DNA from: Candidatus Pacebacteria bacterium CG_4_9_14_0_2_um_filter_40_15
Lineage (GTDB): Bacteria > Patescibacteriota > Microgenomatia > UBA1400 > PJMF01
Direction of reading: 5' to 3'
Length of the DNA stretch: 64,000 nucleotides
Assembly: GCA_002788675.1 (NCBI GenBank)
Contig: PFRS01000001.1
Span: forward strand, 106,204-170,203
In this document: one piece after another, positions 15,838 to 52,215 of the stretch
Layout: each line of letters starts with the position of its first letter
Position numbering within the stretch: position 1 is the stretch's first letter
Notes under the pieces: model-generated
Seen by the model: the letters and a program-made list of their open reading frames with translations, nothing else
Databases searched by the model: none
Told to the model about the DNA's origin: nothing
Made by a program: the position numbers and the translations under genes

Positions 15838-15881
15838 ACCAATCCTTCATTTTTGTATGTGATACGTTTCTTTTGGTTAGC

Positions 15882-18795: not shown

Positions 18796-18847
18796 ACGTG
18801 TACTCTACCATAAATTCTCTATCAAAACGATTTGAGGGTGTGTTAGG

Positions 18848-19417
18848 ATGGTTTCTATGAACGAAGAAAAAATGATCTCAAGCTATGCTCAGATTGCAGA
18901 TCTAGTTACCACTTACCGGAAAGCACATAAAAAAATTGTGCTCACACAAGGCTCTTTCGACATGCTCCACATTGGGCACGGTAGGTACTTAAGCACGGCC
19001 AAAACCTATGGTGATGTATTGTTTGTAGGAATAGATTCAGACGAGAAAATTCGCTCACGAAAAGGTCCGGATAGGCCAGTTGTTCCTGAAGATGAACGTC
19101 TGGAAATGGTCACCTATATCTCAGCAGTTGACCATGCGGTAATCAAGCAACTCGATAAACCAAAATGGGAACTAATCAAAATAATAAAACCCGATGTCCT
19201 TATTGCAACTCGTGAAACATATAGTCCAAAAAAAATTGCTGAACTTGAAAAAATCTGTGGGAAAGTAGTTGTTCTCGAGCCAATGGCCACTACCTCCACC
19301 AGCGCAAAACTGCGACTTGTCCAGTTAGGTATGGCAAAAAAAATAGGCAAAACGCTCTCAGACAGAATGATTGCTACTATGGAAGAAGTCATTGAAGAAT
19401 TAAAGGCGCTCCGGTAA
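18848..19417 (+). CDS. Cytidylyltransferase-like nucleotidyltransferase (TagD/RfaE domain II-like)
   Basis: HxGH motif in TQGSFDMLHIGHGRYL, plus ISAVDH and KPDVL motifs. Confidence 0.6.
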   Translation: MVSMNEEKMISSYAQIADLVTTYRKAHKKIVLTQGSFDMLHIGHGRYLSTAKTYGDVLFVGIDSDEKIRSRKGPDRPVVPEDERLEMVTYISAVDHAVIKQLDKPKWELIKIIKPDVLIATRETYSPKKIAELEKICGKVVVLEPMATTSTSAKLRLVQLGMAKKIGKTLSDRMIATMEEVIEELKALR

Positions 19418-20220: not shown

Positions 20221-20224
20221 AAAA

Positions 20225-20701
20225 TTATTTTTTTGATTTTCCAAGCTTAACTCGAACTGGCTCATAGGTATCAGACTCAATATCAGGCTGAATAAACTGT
20301 GCATGCAAGTGGTGTACACTTCCTGCTGAATAATTTGTATCTCCAAATCGCATCACAAATCCTCCACCAGGAACATCAAAATGTGCGGCCGCCCACTGAA
20401 ACACTTCTATAAGTTCTGTGCCTGCTTCTGGATTAACTTCAGAAAGATGCTCAGCATGCTCTTTGTAGATTGCAAGCAAATGCACTTTTGTGTGTTTATA
20501 TGGCCAACGATTATACGTAAGCAACCAAAATTTTCCATCAAAAAGAGTCTCTTCCTCTTGATGTGCGGCAAAATTTTCCATGCAAAAAGGACAATCTCCT
20601 GTTTCAGCAATTTCTTGCATCGCCTTAAGTTGATCATCAAAGCGATAATTATCTAAATCAACAACTGGTTTTTTCTTCATAGTTCTCTCATTTATTAACA
20701 C
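20225..20701 (-). CDS. HIT-superfamily protein of the GalT / Ap4A-phosphorylase branch (HxHxQ)
   Basis: An N-terminal CPFC zinc motif and the histidine triad variant VHHLHAQF (H-x-H-x-Q). Confidence 0.6.
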   Translation of the reverse strand: MLINERTMKKKPVVDLDNYRFDDQLKAMQEIAETGDCPFCMENFAAHQEEETLFDGKFWLLTYNRWPYKHTKVHLLAIYKEHAEHLSEVNPEAGTELIEVFQWAAAHFDVPGGGFVMRFGDTNYSAGSVHHLHAQFIQPDIESDTYEPVRVKLGKSKK

Positions 20702-38209: not shown

Positions 38210-38281
38210 AGGGCCGTAGTTCAGCGGTAGAATAGAGGTCTCCAAAACCTTTGACGGGGGTTCGATTCCCTTCGGCCCTGC
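38210..38281 (+). tRNA. trnW: tRNA-Trp (anticodon CCA)
   Basis: A cloverleaf with a perfect 7 bp acceptor stem, agggccg/cggccct, an anticodon loop ctCCAaa and a T-loop ttcgatt. Confidence 0.85.
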
Positions 38282-38333
38282 AGAATCCCATAGTATTCAT
38301 ACTATCTCCCTTTTCATATGATAAAATCAATAT

Positions 38334-38753
38334 ATGCAAAAAAAAGTAGATAAAGAATATTTAAATATTAGCTTTGTTGTTATTATTTTGGGCACACTTC
38401 TTCTGGGTGGTTACTATTTTAATAGCAAAAAGGTTGCGAGAATTATAAAAAACCCTGAAACAAAGATTTCTGACACAGAGTGGATATTCAATGAACCTAA
38501 AAATCTAGCAGTCTTTACAACGAAATCAATATTGAATTCTAAAGAAGACATTTTGTATGTAACACATGATTTTGATGATGGAGCTTGGCAATTTTTGCCT
38601 GGCTCTGTTGTTTCCACTGATGACAGCGCCATTATATCTTTAGAGGAGGCCGTAGCAATAGATCCAAGTATTCAAGAGCTGAATTTACTTCCTTTAGGTT
38701 CTAGTGCTCGAAGAGAATCAATCAATTCAAATTGGATCCTGTCTAACAACTAA
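38334..38753 (+). CDS. Hypothetical membrane-anchored protein (island cargo)
   Basis: A 139 aa ORF with an N-terminal transmembrane segment. Confidence 0.45.
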   Translation: MQKKVDKEYLNISFVVIILGTLLLGGYYFNSKKVARIIKNPETKISDTEWIFNEPKNLAVFTTKSILNSKEDILYVTHDFDDGAWQFLPGSVVSTDDSAIISLEEAVAIDPSIQELNLLPLGSSARRESINSNWILSNN

Positions 38754-38771
38754 AGCGTCAATTTCTTAGGC

Positions 38772-38806
38772 AGAAATAGGTTCTAACATCGTTCACTAGT
38801 CCCTGC
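38772..38806 (+). repeat. Island direct repeat, copy A (AAATAGGTTCTAACATCGTTCACTAGTCCCTGCAA)
   Basis: A near-identical roughly 33-35 bp sequence recurs after successive island genes. Its GGTTC...TTC...CCCTGCA core resembles the tRNA-Trp T-arm/acceptor 3' half. Confidence 0.7.
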
Positions 38807-38870
38807 AAAGTACACAACATAGCCTTCATTATCACTTGATAAATACTTTATTTAGCCTTATAATAACCTC

Positions 38871-39131
38871 ATGCAAACACAAACTACTCAAATTAGAGTC
38901 ACACTACCAGTGCAACTTCAAGGTTATTTACAGGCAAAAGCTAATAAATATGGACTTAGTCTGTCGGCCTACATCAGAAATTTAGTAATTAATGATGTTC
39001 AAGACGTTGAGCACCCTGTTTTTGAAATGTCTACTCAATCAGTTAATGATCTTCAGGAGGCTATTGCAGCCGAAAAAGCTGGAAAATTAGTTAGTACTGA
39101 TAATGTCAATCAGTTGCTCCAAGATTTGTAG
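38871..39131 (+). CDS. Ribbon-helix-helix antitoxin (RelB/ParD/CopG-like)
   Basis: An N-terminal RHH motif, IRVTLPVQLQGYLQAKANKYGLSLSAYIRNLV, in an 86 aa protein that sits 2 nt upstream of the toxin gene. Confidence 0.6.
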   Translation: MQTQTTQIRVTLPVQLQGYLQAKANKYGLSLSAYIRNLVINDVQDVEHPVFEMSTQSVNDLQEAIAAEKAGKLVSTDNVNQLLQDL

Positions 39132-39133
39132 CC

Positions 39134-39412
39134 ATGGAAATTTCGTTTTCCCCTAAATGTTTAAACCAATTGCAAAAGCTCAAGAAAGTAGATATCAAAT
39201 TGTTTACAAAAATCCAAAAGAAGTTAGCATTATTTGAGCAGAAATCAAATCATCCTTCATTACGGCTTCATAAGTTGAGCGGAGGACAAAGAGAAACCTG
39301 GAGTGTTTCTGTGGATATGTCATACCGACTACTCTTTTACTATAAACAAGATAAGAACCAGATGCAGGTTGTTTTTTTTAGTTTTGGAACTCATGATCAA
39401 GTGTATAAATAG
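39134..39412 (+). CDS. RelE/ParE-superfamily type II toxin
   Basis: A 92 aa protein whose HKLSGGQRETWSVSVDMSYRLLFYYKQDKNQMQVVFFSFGTHDQVY region matches the RelE/ParE core pattern (L.G....W..R....YR..Y.......i.vl.ig.H..Y). Confidence 0.65.
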   Translation: MEISFSPKCLNQLQKLKKVDIKLFTKIQKKLALFEQKSNHPSLRLHKLSGGQRETWSVSVDMSYRLLFYYKQDKNQMQVVFFSFGTHDQVYK

Positions 39413-39441
39413 GTTCTAACATCCTTCACTAGTCCCTGCAA
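39407..39441 (+). repeat. Island direct repeat, copy B
   Basis: taAATAGGTTCTAACATCCTTCACTAGTCCCTGCAA. The TAG inside the repeat is the toxin gene stop codon. Confidence 0.7.
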
Positions 39442-39446
39442 GATAG

Positions 39447-39474
39447 AAAACAACTCATTTGAGTTGTTTTTTTA
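39447..39474 (+). terminator. Intrinsic terminator after the toxin-antitoxin module
   Basis: A hairpin aacaactca-ttt-gagttgtt followed by ttttttt. Confidence 0.6.
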
Positions 39475-39584
39475 TCTTGAAGAATCGAGAGCGCATAACC
39501 CATGGTTCGCAATGCGAGTTATAAATAGTTCTTCCTCCAGTACGAGCATCTCACAGCACGCTCATCACAGATGAGTGTGCGAGA

Positions 39585-39603
39585 AGTCCCTCCGGCCCTG
39601 CAA
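39585..39603 (+). repeat. Near-exact copy of the tRNA-Trp 3' end (att-like core)
   Basis: AGTCCCTCCGGCCCTGCAA here matches the tRNA ATTCCCTTCGGCCCTGCAG at 16 of 18 positions. Confidence 0.6.
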
Positions 39604-39619
39604 AATATAAACTTCTGTA

Positions 39620-40027
39620 ATGAGCCAGAACAATGCTAAAATATCTTCTATGATGAAAATAATAAAAATCACACCTCTCTATTTCTCAGCCATATTCATG
39701 GCATCACTTCTAGTGAGTGGATGTACTACAAATAGTCCTAAAACTAACCCAACCACTCAAGAATACAATCTGCCTGTCGAAACGGAGGTTCAAGAAAATA
39801 TTGAAACTTCAATTGATACCGGTATGGTTGAATCGGATGCAACAGATTCTGGAACTGAGGTATCGCCAGAAAAAGTAGAAAATAGTTTTGAAGCATGTTC
39901 AAAAACCTACTATGACAGGTGTTATATTAATAACCCTAAAACAATAAATCAGCAACGATGTCTTGAGGGTATGAAAATAACAGTAAACATAAATTGCCCT
40001 GACACACCATATGGAACAAAGAAATAG
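39620..40027 (+). CDS. Small secreted lipoprotein (island cargo)
   Basis: A signal peptide with a LLVSGCTT lipobox, in a 135 aa Cys-containing protein. Confidence 0.5.
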   Translation: MSQNNAKISSMMKIIKITPLYFSAIFMASLLVSGCTTNSPKTNPTTQEYNLPVETEVQENIETSIDTGMVESDATDSGTEVSPEKVENSFEACSKTYYDRCYINNPKTINQQRCLEGMKITVNINCPDTPYGTKK

Positions 40028-40052
40028 GTTCAATTTATTCTTCCGCTACAGA
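40022..40052 (+). repeat. Island direct repeat, copy C (degenerate)
   Basis: AAATAGGTTCAATTTATTCTTCCGCTACAG. The stop codon TAG lies inside it. Confidence 0.45.
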
Positions 40053-40462
40053 AAACACCAGGGTTTCAAGCCTTGGGATGAATGGCAGTTGAGGCGAAAG
40101 CCGAAACTGCTATCTAGTATACTTGATGCATGACTAGAAAATATTGGACGGGAGCTCATACAACACATCGGTTGAGATTTCATATCGTACTTTTACCAAA
40201 ATATCGCAAATTTTAGGGACATATCAAAAGAAAAATTATTACATTTATTTGTGAAAAAAACGTATAGAAAATAGTGTGGGAAGATTTGGGACTGGTTGAC
40301 TACTCTACTGCCCCTCACTACAAATCAGATCACCCAGAATCAACATTTATTGATACATCTGTCGCCTATTTTGTAAAAAATAATATGCCGTTTAAGACTT
40401 TGCGAGATGGGGATGTTTTGATTTTGCAAGACTCTCAGTTAAAAAAGTAAGCATGCCTTTCA

Positions 40463-41065
40463 CTACTGCATAACTCGCTCAAAAAAAGAAATCGCAACAT
40501 CACTACTTTGCCTGGTGACCGCCGCGTACACGAATACACACATAAATATCAAATCAATAAATAAGCCAGCAATTGCATACGAAAACGTCACAAAAACAAT
40601 CCTCTTTACCCAAGGTGCAATCCACTGTCCAACTTTGTCGTACTTTCCTCTTAAAAAATAGACTATGTCGCTGACACCCGAGAGTGGTATTTGAAAAACA
40701 AAAAGTAAGTAGGCCAAGTTCCGAAACACTTTCCACCCCTCAATCAGATCTGGTCTAAAGTTGTAAGAACCAGAGTAAATGCTCGAGAGTCTAAAATGGA
40801 AAAAAATTGTTACCACAATCAGCGCTGGAGCAAAAAAGCCAGTTGCTTTCCCTAGTAAAAACCCAGGAAGTGTAAAAAATCGTTCTAAAGAAGCTTTACC
40901 ACTTTCTACTATAGATCGATTTTTATTAGCAGATTGTACCGTCAGGTACTCTCGATACTCAAGAAACTGTTTTTTTAACGAAAATGCTATCATGAATACT
41001 AGTATACCAGGGTTATAAAAAAATCTACCCGGAACAAAGGCCCGGCAGAGATCTAAATTATGCAC
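40463..41065 (-). CDS. Polytopic membrane protein, unknown function
   Basis: A 200 aa ORF with several hydrophobic helices. It is the only minus-strand gene in the island. Confidence 0.45.
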   Translation of the reverse strand: MHNLDLCRAFVPGRFFYNPGILVFMIAFSLKKQFLEYREYLTVQSANKNRSIVESGKASLERFFTLPGFLLGKATGFFAPALIVVTIFFHFRLSSIYSGSYNFRPDLIEGWKVFRNLAYLLFVFQIPLSGVSDIVYFLRGKYDKVGQWIAPWVKRIVFVTFSYAIAGLFIDLIFMCVFVYAAVTRQSSDVAISFFERVMQ

Positions 41066-41146
41066 ACCTTTCTGAAAAAACCTTACAAAAAAAAGATTAT
41101 TCTTGACTAGAATGATATACTATAGGTACTAAAAACAAATAGTTAT

Positions 41147-42022
41147 ATGAACACACAAGCAATTATCCGCGAAAATACACAAAGAACATACCTATACATG
41201 TTTCTTTTGATACTAATCCTTGGCACTATCGGACATGGTCTCTCTAGTTTTTTTGAAGTAGGGCTCACCGGAACAAGCACATTTATTATTACTTCTCTGC
41301 TTATAAACGTAGTTGCCTTCTTTTTTTCTGATAAAATCATTTTACGTACCGTCGGAGCAAAAAAATTAGACAAAACAGTTGCTCCAGACTTTGTAGAACT
41401 TGTTGCCAATCTGGCAAATAATCAGAATCTGCCCCAACCAAAACTCTACTACATGGATACTGATGCTATGAACGCGTTTGCCACTGGTAGAGATCAAAAA
41501 CATTCAGCAGTAGTAATCACCCGAGGATTACTCGAAAAAATGAAGCAAAATGAAGTTGAAGCAGTAGTTGCTCACGAACTTGCACACATCAAGTACCTTG
41601 ATGTTCGACTAATGACCATTGTTACCGTGCTTGCAGGGCTTCTTACTCTGCTATCTGATATGTTCTGGTACAGCAATGTTGCTCAAAAAGCATCTGAGAG
41701 AGATAACTCTGGCTCAGTACAGATGATTGGTATGGCCCTGGCACTTTTTGCTCCATTTACGGCACTCCTTATTCAAAATGCGATCTCTCGAAAAAGAGAA
41801 TATATTGCTGATGCGGCAGCATCAGACATGATTGGATCAAGTCACCCTCTTATCGAAGCACTCGAAAAGATCAGAAGAGATCAGATCCCTTTACCAGGAT
41901 CGCAGGCTGCAACAGCTCACTTGTTTTTCTCACAACCATCAAAAGATGGCTTTATTGAAAAGCTCTTCTCTACCCATCCTCCTCTAGAAGAACGTATTGA
42001 ACAGTTAAAGAAACTAGCTTGA
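41147..42022 (+). CDS. htpX: HtpX-like M48 zinc metalloprotease
   Basis: Transmembrane helices followed by the HExxH motif in VAHELAHIKYLD and a downstream glutamate (EYIADAAA). Confidence 0.75.
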   Translation: MNTQAIIRENTQRTYLYMFLLILILGTIGHGLSSFFEVGLTGTSTFIITSLLINVVAFFFSDKIILRTVGAKKLDKTVAPDFVELVANLANNQNLPQPKLYYMDTDAMNAFATGRDQKHSAVVITRGLLEKMKQNEVEAVVAHELAHIKYLDVRLMTIVTVLAGLLTLLSDMFWYSNVAQKASERDNSGSVQMIGMALALFAPFTALLIQNAISRKREYIADAAASDMIGSSHPLIEALEKIRRDQIPLPGSQAATAHLFFSQPSKDGFIEKLFSTHPPLEERIEQLKKLA

Positions 42023-42687
42023 AAGGGCATATGCCTAAAAAAGAAGCAGCAGTAAAAACTATACAAATGGGTAGCAAGGTTGAAGAAAAAGTCCCTTGCT
42101 CAGAATGCAAAAAAGAAGTTGGAGCCCAGGAGCGACATGTCTTCAAAGGAAAAAGTAATACTGATATCTATTATTGTGACAGTTGTGTAGAAAAAATTAA
42201 TGAAGCATTGGCAAATGAAACAAAAAATCCAAACATTATTAAAGCAGTGCTTGTCGGTGCAATGGCTGGATTCATCGGAACGATAGGATGGTATCTCTTT
42301 GTAATACTTACCCAATATCAAATTGGCTATATTGGCATCGCCCTTGGCTGGCTTATTGGTACAGCGTATGTCAAAGGTGCTGGCGAAAAACGTGGACACC
42401 AACTCCAGCTACTAGCTGCAATAACAACACTCATTTCCCTACTTGGAGCTGATTTATTCATTTTTACACATTTTAGTGCAGAATACTTTAATTCTGAATT
42501 TGGTATACAAGTTTCTAGCTTAGATATTATTCTGAGTTTCTTAGTTGATAATACTGAAGGTATGCGTTCACTATTTTTACAAGACTTTTTGTCTTCTGTA
42601 GCATCACCGATTGGATTACTTATCTGGGGAATTTCTATCTTCACTGCGTACAGCATTCCAAAGCCACGCGTGCTATCAACAAAATAG
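42019..42687 (+). CDS. Zinc-ribbon membrane protein, translationally coupled to htpX
   Basis: An N-terminal CSECKK...CDSC zinc ribbon and four or five transmembrane helices. The ATGA overlap with the htpX stop indicates translational coupling. Confidence 0.5.
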   Translation: MKGHMPKKEAAVKTIQMGSKVEEKVPCSECKKEVGAQERHVFKGKSNTDIYYCDSCVEKINEALANETKNPNIIKAVLVGAMAGFIGTIGWYLFVILTQYQIGYIGIALGWLIGTAYVKGAGEKRGHQLQLLAAITTLISLLGADLFIFTHFSAEYFNSEFGIQVSSLDIILSFLVDNTEGMRSLFLQDFLSSVASPIGLLIWGISIFTAYSIPKPRVLSTK

Positions 42688-42716
42688 GTTCGAACATCCT
42701 TCACTAATCACTGCAA
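42682..42716 (+). repeat. Island direct repeat, copy D
   Basis: AAAATAGGTTCGAACATCCTTCACTAATCACTGCAA. The stop TAG lies inside it. Confidence 0.65.
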
Positions 42717-42744
42717 AATCCTATAGTATAATTACTATATTTAC

Positions 42745-43386
42745 TTGATTTCTAGTACTACAGTAATAAGTATGAAAAAGAAAAACAAAATATCCTTATT
42801 AGTTCTACTAATTATTTCTTTGGTATCGATATCAACATATTTATTTTTTAATAGAGATAATACTAAGATAATAAACACAACAGTATCAAATTCAATTTAT
42901 AAAGAACATGATACTAGTTTTTCAATTCAATACCCAAAAATATGGACATATGTTTCATATTATTATGATACTCACATTAACTCAGGAAAAACTAAACGCA
43001 TTGCATTTAGACCCATAGATCTTGAATTAATTGATGAAGAGTATGGAACTATTTTGGTTAGTGAATTTACTAATGTAGAATAAAAAGATCTTTCAACATT
43101 TATAAGTAACTATTTTTGTTATGAACCAGGGAACTGTTTAGATATTGATAATTTCATTCCTCGATCAGTATCTAATTTACCTGCAGTATCAATTGAGAAT
43201 TTTGAAGGTCCACTTCCATCAGGAGACGTCGTGTTTATGGATGGAAATTCATTTTATATATTCTCAATAATATATGAAGGCAGTTATGACAAAGAAACTG
43301 GTGAATATGTGGGTAAATCAGAAGATGACATTGCTAATAAATTAGTATTCGAGGAAATGTTGTCTTCATTCATTAGAACAAAATAG
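42745..43386 (+). pseudogene. Secreted/membrane-anchored hypothetical gene interrupted by an in-frame TAA at 43081-43083
   Basis: The reading frame continues without a plausible restart for another 100 codons, ending at a TAG that is embedded in repeat copy E. The first part has an N-terminal transmembrane segment. Confidence 0.45.
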
Positions 43387-43414
43387 GTTCTAACTTCGTT
43401 CACTAGTCCCTGCA
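43381..43414 (+). repeat. Island direct repeat, copy E
   Basis: AAATAGGTTCTAACTTCGTTCACTAGTCCCTGCA. Confidence 0.7.
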
Positions 43415-43473
43415 TTTCCGTGATATATTTACTTAGAAATAAAATAAGTTGTTAATTATTACAGGAAGAAACT

Positions 43474-43791
43474 ATGAAACCCGAGGGAAATCCAATTAGT
43501 TCAGAGCAAGAGTATGTAAGTCAGAATTATCCAACTCTTAATTCTGCTGAATATGTTGTTGGATTTGAAGATGTACTTCCGATTTATTCAGCTCAAAAAT
43601 TTGGCGAAAAAATTGAAGTTAGTGGGCAAGGTATGAGTGGAGGTACATTCTATTTAAGTGATCACATGTTACCAGATCAATCCATTCCTGACGATTTTGT
43701 GGAAAATTTTCGTCAATATAAAGTAATTCAGCGTGTAGTAAAAGTGCAAGGAATTATGCGCTTTCATAAATATCGAATTGAAAAGGAATAG
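43474..43791 (+). CDS. Hypothetical protein (island cargo)
   Basis: A 105 aa ORF preceded by a GGAAG-type ribosome binding site. Confidence 0.45.
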   Translation: MKPEGNPISSEQEYVSQNYPTLNSAEYVVGFEDVLPIYSAQKFGEKIEVSGQGMSGGTFYLSDHMLPDQSIPDDFVENFRQYKVIQRVVKVQGIMRFHKYRIEKE

Positions 43792-43820
43792 GTTCAAATA
43801 TCTTTAAATTGTCCTATAAC
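43786..43820 (+). repeat. Island direct repeat, copy F (degenerate)
   Basis: GGAATAGGTTCAAATATCTTTAAATTGTCC, with the stop TAG inside. Confidence 0.4.
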
Positions 43821-43926
43821 TATTGATTTTTTACAAATTTCTCTATATAATACAATTGCCTTACTAATTAATAGCTCAATGAAGCATTGAATATATTAAT
43901 TAAATGTATAAGGCTGAGGCAGAGAA

Positions 43927-44007
43927 ATGAAAAAGCAAAGTCCAATCTTTTGGTGTTTTGTATTCATATTTTTCTTGAGTCTATGTATGCTTTTTTTGCC
44001 TGCATAG
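43927..44007 (+). CDS. Small hydrophobic peptide (26 aa)
   Basis: MKKQSPIFWCFVFIFFLSLCMLFLPA, followed by a hairpin at 44017-44044. Confidence 0.3.
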   Translation: MKKQSPIFWCFVFIFFLSLCMLFLPA

Positions 44008-44053
44008 ACTTATTTAGGGGCTAGAGATAGTACAATCTAGCCCCAATATTTTC

Positions 44054-44089
44054 AAAATAAGTTTTAACACGCTTCATTAGTCACTGCAA
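44054..44089 (+). repeat. Island direct repeat, copy G (degenerate)
   Basis: AAAATAAGTTTTAACACGCTTCATTAGTCACTGCAA. Confidence 0.5.
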
Positions 44090-44133
44090 TTACAACAAAA
44101 TGGTATACTCACTCTTAATTAAAGTGGGAAAGT

Positions 44134-44484
44134 ATGATTAAAAAGATTTTACAATTACTATTCTTTGTTCTCTCCCCATTTGCATCGCTCTTGTTTTTAA
44201 CTCCAATCACAATGATTCCTGCTGTTATGGTAGGTAAAATAGTAACTGCCAATGAGTGCGGGAATGCTGTGGGTGAAAGCCTCTGTGGTTTAGGAACAAT
44301 CGCACTGATAGTGTTTGGACTTAATGCCATTGTTGGCGTTATTGTTGTAATTTTATTACATTTAGAAATGAATAAGACATTCAGTTATAATAAGAAAGTT
44401 GCTAGCTCTTTAGTACTATTTACTTACTTTCTTATTGTCGCTGCAGCTTTTCTGTATTTTGTAGCAATTGATATATATACCTAA
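44134..44484 (+). CDS. Small polytopic membrane protein
   Basis: A 116 aa ORF with three hydrophobic helices. Confidence 0.45.
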   Translation: MIKKILQLLFFVLSPFASLLFLTPITMIPAVMVGKIVTANECGNAVGESLCGLGTIALIVFGLNAIVGVIVVILLHLEMNKTFSYNKKVASSLVLFTYFLIVAAAFLYFVAIDIYT

Positions 44485-44758
44485 GAAAACAAAATATAAA
44501 AGTTTGTTTGTGAAAAAGAGTATCTGAATCAAATCATGTTTTTAACGATGCAGTCTATTTAACTAGACTGATTCAGCTTAAGAACGTGTTAGAAGTTATC
44601 GACACAGCAAGAAATGGCATGCAGAATAACCCTTCACTTGAAACTGCTTGTCAAACGATATTGGGTATTGAGGGGGCAAGGCATGCTTTATCAGCTTTAT
44701 ATCCTTTGGGGGTTGGTCCCCTGAGTGATTATTTTGATATTCGTTGAAAACGTACTGT

Positions 44759-44795
44759 AAAAAGACTTTGGATTAATCCAGAGTCTTTTTTTTCT
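44759..44795. terminator. Bidirectional intrinsic terminator
   Basis: A hairpin agactttggatt/aatccagagtct flanked by aaaaa and tttttttt. Confidence 0.6.
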
Positions 44796-44819
44796 TTACT
44801 ACTCTGTAAAGAATTAACT

Positions 44820-45110
44820 TTAAACTAAAGTCGCAAGAATTCTTTTCAATTCAGTAACTTTTTCACTTGGCCCAGATACATTAAATCTGAACCTACTTGA
44901 ACGCGGAAATTCACGTTTGAAAGTTATTGCTAAACCATGTTCTTGAGCATAATCAGTTAACAATTGAATTGTCTCTGATCGCTTATTTCGAAGACCTTTT
45001 CCTTCTATAACAAAATCTTCTGTTCTTTCTGGTTTTATTAAATCTTCAATCCTAGCAGTTTGTTCCTCTAAAAATTGAGCAGCCTTTGCAGATAAATCAC
45101 CTTCTCTCAT
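44820..45110 (-). CDS. Hypothetical protein
   Basis: A 96 aa ORF. Confidence 0.4.
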   Translation of the reverse strand: MREGDLSAKAAQFLEEQTARIEDLIKPERTEDFVIEGKGLRNKRSETIQLLTDYAQEHGLAITFKREFPRSSRFRFNVSGPSEKVTELKRILATLV

Positions 45111-45398
45111 ACATTTTTCCTATCTAATTTATTTTAATTCTAACTCTATACTACCACGTACTGGAAAGTTTGCGGTAAATATAAATTTAAACGCCATACC
45201 GTTCCTCATGCTACAATCGCAAGTGCTCTAAAACTACTTATCTCGAATTTCTCACTCGTCATTCTTTAGACTTTTTTTAATCCCATAATATTTACTTTTT
45301 GTCTATTCCATGCTATAATTTCTCTGTCTCTATTCTGGCAGAATACAAATCATAGCGTTTTTTTTCTGCTAAATACGTGGAGACAAAGGAGAAACACT

Positions 45399-45494
45399 AT
45401 GTCCCGAGGAGTAGTATTACTTATTCTCTTTCTTATTTTCATTGGGCTAGTAGCCGCAACTTGGCTACTCACAAATATGTGGTGGCCCGCCTAA
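45399..45494 (+). CDS. Small hydrophobic peptide (31 aa) with a strong Shine-Dalgarno sequence
   Basis: AAGGAG lies 6 nt upstream of the ATG. The peptide is MSRGVVLLILFLIFIGLVAATWLLTNMWWPA. Confidence 0.4.
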   Translation: MSRGVVLLILFLIFIGLVAATWLLTNMWWPA

Positions 45495-45619
45495 ACAAAA
45501 AAGTCCTGAGCATGACTTCAAATAAAGGCTCACTTTTCCTTCAATACTGTGTACTAAAATGCTAAGCTTTCTTAGCTACACCTCATACTGCTGCAACTCT
45601 CCATGCTACAATCGTATGT

Positions 45620-46090
45620 ATGCAGAAACTACTTATCTCGGACTTTTCGCAGGTCCTTCTCTTCCCCAAGACAATTTCGTATTCTGGCTCACTCAACAAA
45701 CTCTACAATCAGGTAGTAGCCGAAAAACAGAACTTTGAAGATTTTTATATTCTTAATGAACCATTACTCACAGAGCTACAAAAATTAGAGGTAGAAAAAG
45801 TTATCTTTACTACTGGCACAGTTCAGAATGCCCCAGAAATTAGGAGCAAAGTACAGGCAGTCTTCAAAAAAATATTTACCGTGCCCATGATAGGAATCCA
45901 AAAAACTAACAGTGAGGCCTACACAAGAATTTGTGAAGAACTTAATACTGATCCGGCGAATGCACTCTTTATTGATGATACTCAGGCAAATGTCTCAGCA
46001 GCCCAGCAGGCAGGACTACAAGCAGTTGTCTACGAAAATAACGCTCAAATTCTAAGCGCAATTGAAAGTTGGATCCGCAATGATACATAA
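45620..46090 (+). CDS. HAD-like hydrolase (degenerate motif I)
   Basis: A C-terminal LFIDDTQANVSAAQQAGLQAVV HAD motif. The N-terminal motif I reads SDFS instead of DxDG. Confidence 0.5.
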   Translation: MQKLLISDFSQVLLFPKTISYSGSLNKLYNQVVAEKQNFEDFYILNEPLLTELQKLEVEKVIFTTGTVQNAPEIRSKVQAVFKKIFTVPMIGIQKTNSEAYTRICEELNTDPANALFIDDTQANVSAAQQAGLQAVVYENNAQILSAIESWIRNDT

Positions 46091-46505
46091 ATCTGTGGTT
46101 ACTGGCGTACTGGTCTCTAAAGATGACAAAGTTCTCTTGGTAAAAAAACCAGATGGTGTCGGTCCTTATGCCGGAATGTACCTAACCCCTGGCGGTGGTG
46201 TAAAGACAGGAGAACCAGCTGACAAAGCTGCACTTCGTGAACTCTATGAAGAAACTGGTGTTAACGTAACCGACTTACAGCGCCTAGGTTTTGATGACGC
46301 TGTCACTGCTAACTGGAAAGGCGTTGAGACCCACTACATCATGTTGCTGTATACAGCCAAGTATCTAGCTGGCGATCTGGCACCCACTGAAGGTGATGAT
46401 GATCACCTTGCAGTCATTAAATGGTTTTCTAAAGAAGAGCTACAGAAGTTACCACTCTCGCCTCCTCTTAAAAAACTACTACTTTCACTCGGATATCTGT
46501 CTTAG
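46080..46505 (+). CDS. NUDIX hydrolase
   Basis: Nudix box GGGVKTGEPADKAALRELYEETGV. Confidence 0.75.
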   Translation: MIHKSVVTGVLVSKDDKVLLVKKPDGVGPYAGMYLTPGGGVKTGEPADKAALRELYEETGVNVTDLQRLGFDDAVTANWKGVETHYIMLLYTAKYLAGDLAPTEGDDDHLAVIKWFSKEELQKLPLSPPLKKLLLSLGYLS

Positions 46506-46585
46506 TACTAGGTCCTAAAATTACGGGTGTATCTTTCAAAAAGCCAACTATTCCCAAAAGGGATGTACTATGCCTATAATGTGAT

Positions 46586-47056
46586 ATGATTTTACAACCA
46601 GAAACTCTTTCTCAAGATGTCTTAGCCTTCATGCGCAAAACCTCAATTATGTCAGCTGCCATTAATGGCGCTCCTCCTATTTCTACTGTGCTGCTCTTTA
46701 CAGTCGATGATGACTTCACAATGTATTTTGCTACCTTAGAAGGTAGCTATAAAGTACGTGGACTCCAAAAGGACGGTCAAATGTCGATTGCTATTTGGGA
46801 ACATCATGAGCTCTACTTACAGGGATCTGGCGTTGCGAGTATTGTTGCAGACCCAAACAAAGTAACCAAAATTGTTGATCGCCTCGCCGACTCTGCGGTA
46901 AATATTGCAGACTTTTGGCCACCAGTACTGCAAATAAAAGGTCATGACTATGTAGTCTTTGAGCTCAAACTGTCCTGGCTTCGAGCGCGTGACCTTTCAG
47001 ATACTACAATAGTAGAAAAGACAACAAAATTTATGGAGGTACCTCTAGATGAGTAA
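46586..47056 (+). CDS. Pyridoxamine 5'-phosphate oxidase-like FMN-binding protein
   Basis: A split-barrel family pattern of about 150 aa, with general-stress-protein-26-like motifs. Confidence 0.5.
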   Translation: MILQPETLSQDVLAFMRKTSIMSAAINGAPPISTVLLFTVDDDFTMYFATLEGSYKVRGLQKDGQMSIAIWEHHELYLQGSGVASIVADPNKVTKIVDRLADSAVNIADFWPPVLQIKGHDYVVFELKLSWLRARDLSDTTIVEKTTKFMEVPLDE

Positions 47057-47420
47057 AATTCTAATCGCCGAAGACGATCTTTTCCTAGGAAAAATTGCTG
47101 TCAAGAAACTAGAAAAAGAAAATTTTGAAGTCAACTTCTTAATATCAGGTGAAACTGTCCTTGAGCAAGCAAAGTTATTTAAACCAGATGCTATTGTTCT
47201 CGATCTTATCATGCCAGAAAAAGATGGGTTTGAGGCTCTAGTTGAACTCAAAAGTGAGAGTTTAACAAAGGACATTCCTGTTATTATTCTTACAGCATTA
47301 AGTTCACCCGAAGATCAAGAAAAAGTTAAAAAAATTGGGGCTGAACACTTTTTCATTAAGTCTGATATAGAACTTTCTGATCTTACTGCTTACTTACATA
47401 AGCTAGTTGATACTAAATAG
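47049..47420 (+). CDS. Stand-alone response-regulator receiver domain
   Basis: ILIAEDD, a phospho-acceptor Asp in VLDLIMP and ILTA...K motifs. There is no output domain. Confidence 0.75.
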   Translation: MSKILIAEDDLFLGKIAVKKLEKENFEVNFLISGETVLEQAKLFKPDAIVLDLIMPEKDGFEALVELKSESLTKDIPVIILTALSSPEDQEKVKKIGAEHFFIKSDIELSDLTAYLHKLVDTK

Positions 47421-47466
47421 AGTCTCCGCTATCACTGATTCGAAAAAATGAGTATACTGACAGTAT

Positions 47467-48783
47467 ATGCCAGAACTTTTTGACCAATTCCTCATAAAAT
47501 CGCTTAAAGAAGACAAGCAATTTCTTGAAAAAACTGCATTACCCATCATAACGGTGTCCAGTTCATATAAAGAAGACCTCAAAGAAATGCATGGATTTCC
47601 AGGAAGAGATGATACGCCAGATATTGTATTCTCACGAGCTCACTACTCGATGGCTCTAGCTATTGGCATGCAAGCATGGGGTACAAAAATTGATCATGCA
47701 AAAGCTTGGATCCTCGATCCCACAAACTACGTTTCAAAAAAAGATTGGAAATCGATTGTCTTTACCGAAGAAGTTGGTAAAGTTATCGCTCGCCATGGCA
47801 TTCTAAGAACCATTAAATCTATCATCGACAAATTTGGTAGAAGCAAGTTACCCATTCTTGATAGCATCACCCCACCTCTCTTGTACGTCACTAAAGACAT
47901 ATCCCAACCGATTCTGTCTTTTCACATTGCTGCAGGAAATATTCTCGGCCCCCAAGGTAAGACTGTGGTGCAAGTCGTGACCGACCCACATGTTCGAGAT
48001 GAATACGTCACCAACGCTTTTAGAAAAAATATGTATTTCTGTGTTTTTGATGAAATAACTAAAACTGAGTTCCTCGAAAAAGCCGCAATTATGAATATAA
48101 AAGCTGATCCACAACGCATTTTTGTGACTGGAGCACCAATCGATCCACGCACACTTAAGGCTGGTGCCAAAAAAGTGCCACACCGCAGCGGCGTACTGAA
48201 ACTCTGCATCACGACCGGTGGGTTGGGAACAAACAAAAATGAACTGCTCGAGATACTAACACAACTGCTTCCTGAGCTTCGTCGAAAAACACAAAAGTAT
48301 GCTTTGGTCGTATACTGCGCAACACACGACGACATTTTTGAAGCTGTACTCAAGCTTGCAAAAGAGAACCATATATCAGTAGGAATTGAAACTGACACAA
48401 AGGCTCCACTCCGCGTGCTCTATCATCCACAAATTGTTGACGCAAATGAAAAACTTCAGAAATATGGCTTTCCATGGGCTGATGGATTTATAACTAAACC
48501 TTCCGGAGATATGGCCTATGATGCCACTGCAGCTGGTAGCTTTGTGCTTACTTTGGCTGAATGGGGTCCATGGGAGGAACGCATTCGAGAAATTTTTGAA
48601 CAAAAACAAATTAGCAGGCAGCTCGTGCTTGAATCAGTAGTTCCACAGTTGGAAAGTCTTATGGACAGCAGAAACCAACCACACTCATGGATCGAACAAG
48701 CAATGCGGAATGCTCAGTCACTCCCAACGTCACTTACTCACGGGGCTCAACACATCATTGATGTGATGAAAAAGGTAAAATAA
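47467..48783 (+). CDS. Putative GT28-family (MGDG synthase/MurG-like) glycosyltransferase
   Basis: A two-domain Rossmann-like organisation with VTGAPIDP and ITTGGLG motifs, at low confidence. Confidence 0.4.
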   Translation: MPELFDQFLIKSLKEDKQFLEKTALPIITVSSSYKEDLKEMHGFPGRDDTPDIVFSRAHYSMALAIGMQAWGTKIDHAKAWILDPTNYVSKKDWKSIVFTEEVGKVIARHGILRTIKSIIDKFGRSKLPILDSITPPLLYVTKDISQPILSFHIAAGNILGPQGKTVVQVVTDPHVRDEYVTNAFRKNMYFCVFDEITKTEFLEKAAIMNIKADPQRIFVTGAPIDPRTLKAGAKKVPHRSGVLKLCITTGGLGTNKNELLEILTQLLPELRRKTQKYALVVYCATHDDIFEAVLKLAKENHISVGIETDTKAPLRVLYHPQIVDANEKLQKYGFPWADGFITKPSGDMAYDATAAGSFVLTLAEWGPWEERIREIFEQKQISRQLVLESVVPQLESLMDSRNQPHSWIEQAMRNAQSLPTSLTHGAQHIIDVMKKVK

Positions 48784-48910
48784 CACCTTACAGTGAGTTT
48801 TCTTGAGAAAAACAAACAGTTCTTACTTGAATCGTTTGAATCCATGGTACTGATGCTATTAAAAATGGCCGCACGAAGTGCGGCCATTCCAAAATACATT
48901 CCAAAAAAAA

Positions 48911-49111
48911 TTATTTTAGCTTTTTAGATTGTACGTGTGAAGTGTGCTTACGACACTTACTACAATACTTACTCAGTGGGAAAGTTGTTTCGCCACCTTG
49001 CTTCTTTAGAAGCTCATTATTTTTGTTCATTGAAGTCACATATCCAAAGGTGCTGCATTCGCTACACTTTAATCCGATATGTTGTCGTGGACCTTTTTTC
49101 TTGCTTGCCAT
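48911..49111 (-). CDS. rpmG: 50S ribosomal protein L33
   Basis: Zinc ribbon motifs CSEC...KYCSKCRKHTSH. The likely start is MASKKKG, whereas the ORF track extends to 49180. Confidence 0.7.
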   Translation of the reverse strand: MASKKKGPRQHIGLKCSECSTFGYVTSMNKNNELLKKQGGETTFPLSKYCSKCRKHTSHVQSKKLK

Positions 49112-49185
49112 ACTTACTTTCTTATCTTTTTCCAAGATGCGTATTATATCAAAATTTATAGAGGACGTAAATACGCCCATTCTTG

Positions 49186-49258
49186 AGCCACCTCGGGGAT
49201 TCGAACCCCGGACCTACGGTTTACAAAACCGTCGCTCTAACCAGCTGAGCTAAGGTGG
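49186..49258 (-). tRNA. trnT: tRNA-Thr (anticodon TGT)
   Basis: The minus strand reads GCCACCTTAGCTCAGCTGGTTAGAGCGACGGTTTTGTAAACCGTAGGTCCGGGGTTCGAATCCCCGAGGTGGCT, with an anticodon loop ttTGTaa. Confidence 0.85.
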
Positions 49259-49426
49259 CATTAGACTTCTTGCGAAATAAGCTTTGTAGCAATTTTGACA
49301 TATATTTGAGTACTTTTGAAGGCACTTACATGCGATAGTAGCCTGTGCTACTTGAGTATGTAAGTAACGCTCAAAAGTGCCAAATAGATGTCAAAGTACT
49401 GCGAATGTTATTTCGCAAAAAGTCTA

Positions 49427-49511
49427 TGGTGCCAGGTGTAGGATTCGAACCTACGAAGGCGAAGCCAGCAGATTTACAGTCTGCCCTCGTTGACCACTTG
49501 AGTAACCTGAC
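49427..49511 (-). tRNA. trnY: tRNA-Tyr (anticodon GTA) with a long variable arm and an encoded CCA
   Basis: The minus strand reads GTCAGGTTACTCAAGTGGTCAACGAGGGCAGACTGTAAATCTGCTGGCTTCGCCTTCGTAGGTTCGAATCCTACACCTGGCACCA. Confidence 0.8.
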
Positions 49512-49592
49512 AGTATCCTGTTTCAGATGAAACAGTGTCGTTTGAATTATATCATCTCCTCTGCAGGAGCCTAAATGCAATTTCAAACACTG

Positions 49593-49664
49593 AGCCGAAG
49601 ACGGGAATCGAACCCGTGACCCCCATCTTACCAAGATGGTGCTCTACCACTGAGCCACTTCGGC
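49593..49664 (-). tRNA. trnT: tRNA-Thr (anticodon GGT)
   Basis: The minus strand reads GCCGAAGTGGCTCAGTGGTAGAGCACCATCTTGGTAAGATGGGGGTCACGGGTTCGATTCCCGTCTTCGGCT. Confidence 0.85.
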
Positions 49665-49871
49665 ACAAAAAACAGTATTAAAAAACAAATACGCAAAGCG
49701 CAAGGCTTGTAGTTTACTACACTGCCCTCTAAATCTCAATCTAAGAAAACTGCAGAATTCTATTCTACTAGAGTCTCTATCACTCCTTCAAGTGGTACAG
49801 CTCTTCAAATATGAAAATGGGCGACCCTCCAGGCCGCCCATTACTTGTGTTACGTTTTAAATTTCTAACTG

Positions 49872-50672
49872 CTACCAGTCGTTTTCAACATCCCAGAATG
49901 AAACCCTGGCCATGACCCCAAGGGAGTACTGACGTTGGTCAGTCATAAAGAATGAGCCAACTGGATCATTTGGCTCACTATCACCCCATAGGGTTGGTTG
50001 CCGCTTGTAAGCTGCAGCAACAAACCGCAAAAAACCAACCGGGTCTGGGGTGCAAACATCAATATGCTCCACTCCACTCCAAGGAGCCGAAGGATCATAT
50101 TGAACTTCCTGGTAATACACCCAGGGAGCAAACGGGACCGGGACGGGGATGTAGATACGTTCATGATCATCTGCTGGACGCACCAACTGATATGAATCAT
50201 GATACATTGCCAATCGCTTGGCTTCCTTTCGCATCGCTTTCTTGCTGTGAAAACGGCGGCCAATATGGTGCAGCTGGATGTCGTTTCCCTTGAAAGCATA
50301 CAGGCCTATTAGGGCCATCATCAGATCAAATTCCTGGGAAAGTTTGGATACTGTAACAATTTCGTTACCAGAACGAACTCCCCCCTGCCAGCCCAATGAC
50401 CTTTTGTAGGTCGCAACTGGCGTTGTGCAAATCCCATATGGATCACCGCGGGAAACAAGTTCCCCATACTTCGCCCAGGCGACTCCCCCTGCCTCAGAGG
50501 CTGGGTCTGGGTAGGATGTTCCCAACCAGGCGCCGAACGCGCCTGATGTCTGGGTATCATAATTTGCGATACCCATTACCGCATAAAACGGTTGCCGTCT
50601 CGCAACGGCAATTTGATCCATTAGTCTTACAGCACCAACAGTCTGTGGTGGTGACATGTTAACATCTATCAT
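49872..50672 (-). CDS. Hypothetical protein encoded by a GC-rich (about 55%) segment, likely horizontally acquired
   Basis: A 266 aa ORF with a GGAGG ribosome binding site. Local GC is about 15 percentage points above the surrounding DNA, and many overlapping six-frame ORFs appear here as a consequence. Confidence 0.55.
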   Translation of the reverse strand: MIDVNMSPPQTVGAVRLMDQIAVARRQPFYAVMGIANYDTQTSGAFGAWLGTSYPDPASEAGGVAWAKYGELVSRGDPYGICTTPVATYKRSLGWQGGVRSGNEIVTVSKLSQEFDLMMALIGLYAFKGNDIQLHHIGRRFHSKKAMRKEAKRLAMYHDSYQLVRPADDHERIYIPVPVPFAPWVYYQEVQYDPSAPWSGVEHIDVCTPDPVGFLRFVAAAYKRQPTLWGDSEPNDPVGSFFMTDQRQYSLGVMARVSFWDVENDW

Positions 50673-50844
50673 TTCTGATCAACCTCCTCGGCCACTGGCC
50701 GAATAAAAAAAGTTAAAACGTTATTAAAGAAGAAGTGCGGGTTTAGCGCGCAAAAAATGCACTAAAATCACACAGTAGCAGGCATTTTACCACAAAAATA
50801 TAAATATGAGACGCTAATATAGGCAAAAATAAAAAATAGAAAGT

Positions 50845-51004
50845 TTCAAAAAACAAAAACAGCCCTGCGTGAGAGGCTTCCGATTCCCGCAGGAACCATG
50901 TGGGTAGAATGCTCATTACTCCTCGGAGCAACAAGACGCTTCATAAACCCGTTATCAAAGTGTTCAGGAAAACTCTTCGACCTCTCACGCAGGGCTGTCT
51001 TTTA
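50845..51004. repeat. Long inverted-repeat element
   Basis: A 22 bp inverted repeat, aaaaacagccctgcgtgagagg / cctctcacgcagggctgtctttt, encloses a roughly 115 nt GC-rich loop. Confidence 0.6.
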
Positions 51005-51070
51005 ATGTTCAGTTGTAGATTCAGTATACAACGATTCTTTTCAACTCAAAAGATGACGTAAAACGTCAAA

Positions 51071-51955
51071 CTAACTCAGTTCTTTGACCCATTCTGCTAC
51101 CTTTGAACCATATTTTTCGTGATCTAGCACGAATTTCAGATGGGCCTTAAAGTAGTTTTCTGGATCACCCGTGGTCATCCACTCGCCTTTTGTTTTTCCA
51201 ACTAATACTCGTTTTGTTTTTGCAACTTGAGTAATTGAGTCAACGGTCCAAAGTTCATTATCTTTGCCAGTATTACCAGGAACTAAATATTGAAGCACAT
51301 CTGGTGTTAAAAGATAACGACCATAGGAACCCAATCGTGAAGGCTCGGTGCCTTGGTCTGGCTTTTCAACAATATAATCAAGATCTGTGTCAGATCCATC
51401 TTTAAACTTTATGATTCCATATTTATCAACCACATCTGCACTCACTTCCTGAGACATGATAATTCCTGAAACATCAGGATTGGCTTCATACAGATCAACC
51501 ATAGTCTTTGCATCTCCCTGAGCGCCAAAAACAACGTCATCACTATAGATAACCAAGAATGCTTCTTCACCATCAACAAACCGTTGAGCTGATGCAACTG
51601 GAGAGCCATTACCATAAGGCAAACTCTCATCTTGAGTAATCACAACAATCTTTGGAAAGTTGAGTACATGCTGTACAGGTTCGTAACGATCTTCTTTACC
51701 CTGAGAAGCAAGCTGTTTGCGTATACGGTTTACATTATTATTAAAGTAATCCTCGTATACTGGTTTACCTTCAGGTGTGGCAACAATAATAATTTCCTCA
51801 ATTCCTGCCTCAGCGCATTCCTCGACCATAAACTGCATAATTGGTTTGTTACCTAGTGGCAGCATTCCTTTTGGAACCGTTTTTGTTACAGGCAAGTAAC
51901 GACTTGCGAAACCAGCATCTGTAATAATTGCTTTTCTTACTCGTTTTTCGTTCAT
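51071..51955 (-). CDS. galU: UTP-glucose-1-phosphate uridylyltransferase (copy 2)
   Basis: KAIITDAGFASRYLPVTKTVPKGMLPLGNKPIMQFMVEEC. Confidence 0.75.
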   Translation of the reverse strand: MNEKRVRKAIITDAGFASRYLPVTKTVPKGMLPLGNKPIMQFMVEECAEAGIEEIIIVATPEGKPVYEDYFNNNVNRIRKQLASQGKEDRYEPVQHVLNFPKIVVITQDESLPYGNGSPVASAQRFVDGEEAFLVIYSDDVVFGAQGDAKTMVDLYEANPDVSGIIMSQEVSADVVDKYGIIKFKDGSDTDLDYIVEKPDQGTEPSRLGSYGRYLLTPDVLQYLVPGNTGKDNELWTVDSITQVAKTKRVLVGKTKGEWMTTGDPENYFKAHLKFVLDHEKYGSKVAEWVKELS

Positions 51956-52215
51956 AGGATCTCCTTAGTGATCTTATTTACATTCGTGTGACACACTCAT
52001 TGTACACGTTAGTGTATACCTATCTGTAATATCTCTGTTTTATCGAGAGAAACGAAAAAAATATCACACTATTTCATACATTGTATCATTTTTTATTTAC
52101 TGATACTCAATTAGTAAGTATATTGGCAATCAATACTCAAGAATACTAAAACCTGCAACTCATAAATTCAGACTAAACAACTACAAAAAAATCAGGTACT
52201 ATAGTTACAACAGTA

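Follow-up and report, generated by a model that had tools for sequence, protein, structure and literature searches.

The tRNA-Trp locus of the window

The window, the whole 64-kb stretch of DNA analysed here, belongs to a Candidatus Pacebacteria (Microgenomates, CPR) MAG and is identical to contig PFWC01000005.1 of GCA_002790935.1 and to groundwater contigs held by ENA and JGI. Downstream of its tRNA-Trp (CCA) gene, and on the same strand, lies a series of small genes set apart by short repeats (Table 1). Most of these repeats belong to one 34-nt family with the consensus AAATAGGTTCnAACATCnTTCACTAGTCCCTGCAA, here called type-A, of which we detected copies starting at 38774, 39407, 42682, 43381 and 44056 and truncated copies at 40022 and 43787, all on the plus strand. 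They are confined to 38.7–44.1 kb, and the stretch of low G+C there spans 38–46 kb. The copies at 42682 and 44056 are more diverged, and in most copies the TAG of the repeat doubles as the stop codon of the upstream ORF. A second kind of site, type-B, is a near-exact copy of the tRNA-Trp 3' end.

Between the tRNA and the type-B site (38283-39586) we found a 139-aa ORF and a RelE-type toxin-antitoxin pair only, with no integrase encoded in the segment. The pair consists of an antitoxin of 86 aa and a toxin of 92 aa behind a promoter-like site (11/12), and the TAG of the type-A copy that follows, A2, is the stop codon of the toxin. The original prediction placed the tRNA copy just upstream of a lipoprotein gene, and a lipoprotein-like ORF does follow it; a homology search with this ORF returned the ORF itself only, and its stop codon is the TAG of a truncated type-A copy (AAATAGGTTCAA, 40022-40033).

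Table 1. Coordinates of the tRNA-Trp gene, junction sites, cassettes and flanking features in the window
Feature	Position	Strand	Evidence or remark
tRNA-Trp (CCA) gene, array anchor	38210..38281	+	ARAGORN; Rfam tRNA model 65.7 bits (38210-38280)
tRNA 3' end and four trailer bases (TCCCTTCGGCCCTGCAGAAT); putative primary attI/attB-like junction site	38267..38286	+	repeat with 39587-39606
CCCTGCA core of tRNA-Trp end	38276-38282	+	in L100, a cassette known elsewhere begins directly after the core
Cassette 1: ORF 38334-38753 (139 aa, weak Imm33-like match), ending in type-A A1 38774-38808	38283..38808	+	
Cassette 2: promoter-like 38836-38864, antitoxin 38871-39131, RelE/ParE-like toxin 39134-39412, type-A A2 39407-39441	38809..39441	+	
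Composite boundary: type-A, terminator-like hairpin 39447-39473, decayed module 39474-39584, type-B	39405..39605	+	profile E 1e-12
Type-B site, tRNA-Trp 3'-end copy; CCCTGCA core 39596-39602	39585..39606	+	equivalents in L099, L118, L112
Cassette 4: lipoprotein-like ORFan (39620 or 39650 to 40027)	39607..40033	+	ends in truncated type-A
Probable IS200/IS605 Y1 transposase N-terminus remnant, 27 codons; weak call	40130..40213	+	read from sequence
Type-A A4, diverged, CACTGCA core	42682..42717	+	at stop of 222-aa ORF 42019-42687; right-flank motif AAATCCTATAGTATAAT next
Type-A A5	43381..43414	+	at stop codon of ORF 43231-43386
Degenerate left half of type-A	43787..43802	+	stop of ORF 43474-43791; weak profile score (E 8)
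Type-A A7, diverged, last recognisable copy	44056..44089	+	profile E 0.004
PNPOx-like gene, distal limit of array region, first conserved gene past the variable region	46586..47056	+	Pfam

The array of the window is broken at 40.0–42.0 kb by DNA that does not look like cassettes, namely an IS remnant, a minus-strand gene and an HtpX-like gene. The IS remnant follows the truncated type-A copy and a hairpin with a GAAA loop (40036-40213 together); its 27-aa translation has no Pfam match, and it resembles the N-terminus of an intact TnpA (PF01797, 3e-31) in the related locus L094, where the complete IS200/IS605 Y1 transposase (reverse complement 1685-2146) has matching hairpins at both ends. Further along, the gene of an HtpX-like M48 peptidase overlaps a 222-aa ORF of membrane zinc-ribbon-like type that ends in a type-A copy (41147-42687); the pair may be either a large cassette or trapped core DNA. 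ORFs 42745-43083 and 43231-43386, which share the cassette between A4 and A5, look like one gene split by a frameshift or stop.

Related arrays in other genomes and metagenomes

A metagenome scan with the type-A repeat pattern yielded 15 loci, and further array loci were gathered with one cassette protein and one conserved neighbour gene as anchors; individual loci are referred to below by L numbers. About two dozen contigs, taken from metagenomes and MAGs of groundwater and other sampling projects, had arrays next to tRNA-Trp, and many of the array contigs recovered were just 1–3 kb long. The fullest example, L118, was taken from a 1.08-Mb contig, and the closest relative recovered, L115, is syntenic with the window. 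A homologue scan with the MBL-fold protein encoded upstream of the tRNA returned distant proteins only (at most 49% identity), without synteny.

We counted 51 type-A matches across 17 non-redundant sequences. Matches in one locus all share an orientation, and their median spacing is near 0.7 kb; at least 17 of 44 copies supply, with their TAG, the stop of an open frame of at least 50 codons. All loci that include both tRNA-Trp and an array, representing about 10 independent lineages, have the array directly downstream of the tRNA and on its strand. L118 carries five type-B sites and, not counting an eleventh that the end of the locus truncates, at least 10 type-A copies over more than 9.8 kb, and in this 21-kb locus type-A copies are found on the array side of the tRNA only. 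Between the window and L115, the interval from the tRNA to the PNPOx-like gene is all different save one repeat, and homology resumes at 46903, inside that gene.

The far flank of the tRNA also recurs. In L118, L100, L103 and L097 a conserved protein of 438-473 aa is encoded divergently beside tRNA-Trp, and the array runs away from its gene. The segment with tRNA-Trp and array is inverted in the window (38210-52000) and in L115, with the distal array end facing the gene for this protein (47467-48783), so that the tRNA lies about 9 kb from it.

A copy of the tRNA-Trp 3' end at the type-B site

The original prediction described positions 39585-39603 as a copy of the tRNA-Trp 3' end, and alignment with the tRNA gene confirmed that the copy is real. 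It had given the likeness as 16 of 18 positions; the 16 matches are correct and the length is 19, with AGTCCCTCCGGCCCTGCAA in the window set against ATTCCCTTCGGCCCTGCAG at 38265-38283 (16/19). The best register pairs 39587-39602 with 38267-38282 at 15/16, and the extended register pairs 39587-39606 with 38267-38286 as a direct repeat at 18/20, with both members on the plus strand and 1,320 nt apart. This similarity stands well above background: window shuffles gave 0.2 matches at three or fewer mismatches and no shuffle had two matches, while the binomial expectation per window is 0.0015 for at least 15/16 and 0.0002 for at least 18/20.

The copy is closer to the tRNA genes of relatives than to the resident one. 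It agrees at 20/20 positions with the tRNA-Trp 3' end of L115 and its first four trailer bases (TCCCTCCGGCCCTGCAAAAT), and at 19/19 with the tRNA-Trp end of L100. Like the L115 tRNA it has C at 39592 and A at 39603, the two positions at which the resident tRNA has T (38272) and G (38283), and the distal copy thus retains the ancestral state. Such ancestral bases are the pattern expected of a displaced att-type half. Type-B sites also occur in L099 (three), L118 (five) and L112 (one), and they follow the sequence of the resident tRNA, with CCGG in the lineage of the window and in L115 and CTGG in L118.

The 19-mer had been read as a possible attR-type duplication left by an integration event. 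A co-oriented direct repeat of the tRNA 3' segment does lie at the distal end of 38283-39603, and, as this segment sits between the tRNA and a displaced copy of ancestral type, the proposed attL/attR geometry holds at that level; the origin of the site from the tRNA and its position at a switch in gene content hold as well. The part that failed is the attR of a single self-contained element, since no integrase was found in the 1.3-kb segment, among the screened window ORFs or beside related arrays, and since the type-B copy is the end of a recurrent composite boundary of about 200 nt in an array of many cassettes. The 19-mer is one boundary within a string of small swappable cassettes downstream of tRNA-Trp.

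Precise excision of the segment was looked for among close relatives. Segment 38283-39603 is present in 25 of the 25 population contigs read, of which the five compared at sequence level are 99.97–100% identical, and look-ups with HtpX and the lipoprotein for strains that lack it gave identical arrangements only. L115, the next relative, is without the segment, but its content at the locus is wholly different.

The composite boundary and its module

The type-B copy forms the last ~20 nt of a composite of about 200 nt (39405-39605) that opens with type-A copy A2. Its hairpin is AT-rich and followed by a T-run, in agreement with the claim that the copy comes after a terminator when the sequence is read directly; a consensus terminator scan did not call it. 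The decayed module that follows in the window (about 110 nt) holds an 11-bp hairpin at 39556-39580, and the hairpin fold z-score for the composite boundary of the window is -2.3.

The composite recurs five times in L118 and two to three times in L099. A profile of seven composites from these two loci aligns end to end with 39405-39605, with low confidence in mid-stretch, where the module of the window is diverged and has lost about 39 nt. Type-B sites lie 162–172 nt downstream of a type-A copy in L118 and L099, where the interval is filled by a terminator-like hairpin and a conserved ~145-nt module; the spacing in the window is 146 nt. This module was located in L118 (reverse complement) within 13560-20353 and in L099 at 1179-1366 and 2925-3102. 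Its 5' end, GGGGTYGATAGG, resembles the 5' end of tRNA-Trp and can pair with TGGCCCT at its 3' end, and its inner hairpins show compensatory changes. Candidate identities for the module are a small RNA that resembles a tRNA, a folded site in the DNA and an attP arm. An identity as tmRNA or another known RNA was rejected, as neither ARAGORN nor Rfam gave a match and conservation does not extend to the apparent tag frame. The decayed module of the window may be inert.

Type-A repeats as diverged tRNA-Trp ends

Repeats of 33 bp had been noted in the window, and they exist, at 38776, 39409 and 43383 with two or fewer mismatches (0 expected); they are the type-A copies. Their kinship with the tRNA-Trp 3' end holds, whereas their proposed origin as deletion derivatives of the type-B copy does not: the alignment with an 8-nt deletion spans the last 11 nt only, and the repeats are a family of their own, conserved widely and alignable with small insertions to the whole T-arm and acceptor 3' strand of tRNA-Trp in relatives. 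In a gapped alignment of type-A (GGTTCGAACATCCTTCACTAGTCCCTGCAAA) with the tRNA of L087 (GGTTCGA--ATCCTT--CTAG-CCCTGCAAA), every aligned position matches and the small insertions total 5 nt. Shuffles scored as well as type-A in at most 6 of 2000 cases for six of seven tRNA-Trp ends and in 41 of 2000 for that of L098, while tRNA-Tyr and tRNA-Thr ends gave background scores against type-A. These alignments identify the type-A repeats as diverged tRNA-Trp 3' ends, comprising T-arm and acceptor 3' strand. The 3' core common to all sites, CCCTGCA(A), corresponds to the end of the acceptor strand, the discriminator and CA.

Type-A folds no more stably than its shuffles (0 kcal/mol on one strand, -0.4 on the other), and it contains no attC-type RYYYAAC...GTTRRRY pair. 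The idea that type-A is an integron attC site was rejected because it forms no hairpin. Dyad symmetry of the kind seen in dif/Xer or serine-integrase sites was absent by eye, except for an ACTAGT hexamer. Dispersed repeats of REP/MITE type were also considered and set aside, the repeats being without a fold and the window copies all lying at 38.7–44.1 kb on one strand. Two of the repeats match between the window and L096 at 33/36 and 33/35, compared with 74% identity over the toxin-antitoxin cassette.

Two arrangements in L112 were observed beside these. In one type-A copy (10274-10329) a 23-nt hairpin insertion parts the left half from the right, and the head of one array (9531-9660) is an orphan tRNA-Trp 3' fragment (TTAGATTCGAGTCCTAGTAGGCCTGCAAAT) directly after an intact tRNA-Leu(CAA).

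Cassette exchange among relatives

Cassettes across the arrays measure 0.4–2 kb and carry toxin-antitoxin pairs, Fic/DOC proteins, PIN-type proteins and small secreted or membrane ORFans, with IS200 and IS30 copies lodged among them. They are compact and co-oriented, each with one 3' site, and the same cassette occurs in differing array contexts. The toxin-antitoxin cassette of the window is also present in L095, L096, L099, L100, L102, L103 and L112, where its neighbours differ and the boundaries lie at the cores. Its 5' region (AARTACAYA...ATAGCCTT...ACTTGA...TATAAT...ATG) starts directly after CCCTGCA, and its left neighbour is type-A in the window, L095, L096 and L103 and the genuine tRNA-Trp in L100. 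As the cassette starts after the same core behind either, the tRNA end and the repeats are interchangeable junction partners, for which these aligned junctions are the strongest evidence. Identical families of right flanks, such as AAATCCTATAATA, recur after tRNA, type-A and type-B cores alike.

Closer comparisons showed single steps of gain or loss. L088 and L093, 95–99% identical, differ by exactly one repeat-bounded cassette, and the crossover between them falls in the left half of the repeat, not in the core. The module with its type-B site is present or absent precisely between the type-A core and the next cassette (L099 and the window versus L096).

Two kinds of duplication were also seen. 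In L090 (reverse complement 377 and 9438) and L086 (reverse complement 117 and 1411) the tRNA trailer is duplicated: the 27–35 nt after the tRNA core recur behind a type-A core at the opposite end of the array or cassette, which conservative exchange at the core only does not predict. In L118 a 1,732-bp unit with two cassettes (196 aa and 147 aa) and a long-form boundary occurs twice in exact tandem (reverse complement 13742-17205).

Search for a recombinase or a mobile origin

Some 50 window ORFs, compared with Pfam, NCBIfam or PHROGs, gave no recombinase domain, and the surroundings of arrays in about 10 contexts (some 10 kb) yielded neither a tyrosine nor a serine recombinase. Precomputed Pfam tables around the arrays of L100, L103, L108, L112, L115 and L118 listed no recombinase, about 60 cassettes contained no integrase fragments, and no circular intermediates were seen. 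From the lack of a recombinase near the arrays we infer one that would act in trans.

Several candidates were considered and rejected. The 438-aa neighbour of tRNA-Trp could have been a hidden recombinase; its PLD-like matches are weak and insignificant and, with 940 homologues, it counts as a highly conserved core protein; JGI names one homologue a UDP-GlcNAc transferase. The IS200/IS605 Y1 transposase is an improbable mover of cassettes, as the L094 copy lies within a cassette, with its own hairpin ends and outside the repeat, and the window has a 27-codon fragment only. For a phage or plasmid origin, neither the repeat, the tRNA-end pattern nor the toxin-antitoxin cassette had a match in IMG/VR, INPHARED or PLSDB; two IMG/VR matches to an 18-mer are due to chance and have no tRNA or repeat context.

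A proposed tRNA-anchored cassette platform and its alternatives

The homology of the sites to the tRNA, the architecture of the arrays, their adjacency to tRNA-Trp, the mobility of the cassettes and the positions of the junctions, all of them shown by comparative evidence, lead us to suggest with moderate confidence that these loci form a tRNA-anchored, integron-like cassette platform served by a putative trans-acting recombinase. The tRNA-Trp 3' end (...CCCTGCA) would be the fixed entry site. Each small cassette consists of one or two co-oriented genes, often with their own promoter, and ends in a site derived from tRNA-Trp, either the 34-nt type-A or a long form that finishes in a near-exact tRNA 3' copy; the 19-mer would then be the 3'-terminal type-B recombination site of a composite boundary element of about 200 nt. 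Cassettes would be gained, lost or swapped by strand exchange at or beside the shared CCCTGCA core, a crossover position that we infer along with the site-specific nature of the exchange and the existence of the enzyme, which would be a site-specific recombinase encoded elsewhere. Homologous recombination between the repeats would produce further deletions and duplications, and the L088/L093 crossover in the repeat body and the 1.73-kb duplication of L118 indicate that it clearly contributes. Against this model stand the observations that no recombinase near the arrays, no circles and no empty site in the same population were found, that the L088/L093 crossover lies off the core, as expected of homologous recombination, that right flanks are duplicated in L090 and L086, that the module of the window is decayed and that the window array is interrupted.

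The main rival to this platform is a relic model, which we consider unlikely: old, separate integrations of elements that targeted tRNA-Trp, each with its own partial tRNA copy, would have piled up and lost their integrases, the repeats would be passive scars, and swapping would proceed only by homologous recombination, aided by natural transformation, without any dedicated cassette system. Co-oriented tRNA 3' copies downstream of a tRNA are what tandem integration leaves (10.1101/2020.12.28.424599), and a relic would account for the lack of an integrase near any array examined, the crossover within the repeat body, the tandem duplication of L118, the duplicated right flanks of L090 and L086 and the ancestral tRNA bases kept by the type-B copy like those of a displaced attB half; DprA is also encoded in the window. 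Scars should decay, however, and the 34-nt repeat keeps one sharp-edged consensus while shared cassette genes are only about 73% identical. Relics also fit poorly with units of 0.4–2 kb that hold a single gene or pair and with some 60 cassettes devoid of integrase fragments. Finally, the tRNA::cassette junction of L100 has just the 7–9-nt core in common with the type-A::cassette junctions, which is too short for RecA-type exchange.

We regard as improbable a reading at the RNA level, in which the tRNA-like repeats, and above all the ~145-nt module, would separate the transcripts of cassettes as punctuation or as signals for processing (RNase P/Z-type, or a small tRNA-like RNA) and owe their conservation to this role, with DNA rearrangement as a by-product of their similarity. 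It draws on the acceptor-stem-like pairing of GGGGTYG at the 5' end of the L118 and L099 modules with the 3' TGGCCCT, on five compensatory pairs in the inner hairpins, and on the place of the repeats on the coding strand, where they overlap stop codons and often have terminator-like hairpins next to them. Type-A, however, has neither a 5' partner nor a fold, the window copy likewise has no 5' partner, the module has unremarkable fold z-scores (-0.7 to -1.0) and no counterpart in Rfam or ARAGORN, and the covariation is thin because there are only four distinct module sequences. This reading also leaves the mosaic of cassettes and the tRNA::cassette junction unexplained.

A chance likeness of a GC-rich 16-mer to the tRNA end, which the shortness of the match and the weak similarity of the upstream window sequence to the modules of relatives might suggest, is effectively refuted by the 0.0002–0.0015 matches expected per window, by a strand and position equal to those of the equivalent sites in L099, L118 and L112, and by the full identity with the L115 tRNA end.

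Comparison with known systems

The tRNA-Trp arrays combine features of integrons with those of tRNA-targeted islands. As in integrons, above all sedentary chromosomal integrons and arrays without an integrase (CALINs), compact cassettes of one or two genes form long co-oriented arrays headed by a single fixed entry site. Every cassette has a conserved recombination site at its end, often over the stop codon, and many cassettes encode toxin-antitoxin pairs; the arrays are parasitised by IS elements and possibly by fragments of group II introns, and content is wholly different between close relatives. Unlike in integrons, no IntI gene lies at the entry site or adjacent to it, and the place of attI is taken by the 3' end of a functional tRNA-Trp gene. 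The recombination site also differs, being 34 nt long, unstructured and tRNA-derived, whereas integrons have an imperfect palindrome of 57–141 nt with RYYYAAC/GTTRRRY ends and attC-like folding. A second, long type of site that ends in an exact tRNA 3' copy further sets these arrays apart. At the head of the assembled part of the L099 array (34-120), the Rfam model of group II intron domain V/VI gave a match of 35 bits, below its gathering score of 40 (E 0.003). Group IIC introns target integron attC sites, a parallel to this match.

In classical attL/attR islands and in the tycheposon islands of Prochlorococcus (10.1101/2020.12.28.424599), successive insertions beyond an intact tRNA gene are set apart by co-oriented partial copies of its 3' end. 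The tRNA-Trp arrays share this layout and resemble such tRNA-targeted islands also in that newer insertions push older ones away from the tRNA, that degraded remnants accumulate and that the region is hypervariable. They differ in unit size, the units here being 0.4–2 kb, ten-fold smaller, and lacking an integrase or replication module. The repeat here has also diverged from the tRNA by small insertions yet keeps one consensus across many lineages, and it is fused to the stop codons of cargo genes.

SCC cassettes are bounded by short direct repeats, and some are without a recombinase and rely on a supply in trans. SCC-type tandem cassettes, including ccr-less pseudo-SCC elements, occupy the 3' end of rlmH (orfX) in staphylococci (PMC11470126). 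The likeness lies in tandem elements at one chromosomal site, and the differences are that the target here is a tRNA gene and not a protein gene, that the cassettes are ten-fold smaller and that the recombinase is a postulated one.

Implications for CPR bacteria

Full-text literature searches yielded no account of such tRNA-Trp cassette arrays in CPR bacteria. A broader proposal, which we put forward only tentatively, is that CPR Microgenomates may hold a previously undescribed capture platform, analogous to integrons and independently arisen, with entry at tRNA-Trp, tRNA-derived sites of 34 nt (linear) or about 200 nt, and a host recombinase acting in trans. In such a platform the tRNA-like module of the ~200-nt form would regenerate an exact entry site inside the array.

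To our knowledge, few mobile-element systems have been described in CPR bacteria, whose genomes are tiny, so the means by which they acquire and shuffle accessory genes are poorly understood. The tRNA-Trp arrays suggest one route, in which one-gene cassettes are exchanged at tRNA-derived sites. Were a trans-acting recombinase to be found, the arrays would represent a new cassette-capture system with a compact pair of recombination sites, and this would explain why metagenome assemblies break at such regions. If the platform reading is true, toxin-antitoxin, Fic and surface-protein genes would have a hypervariable locus set aside for them even in very small genomes.
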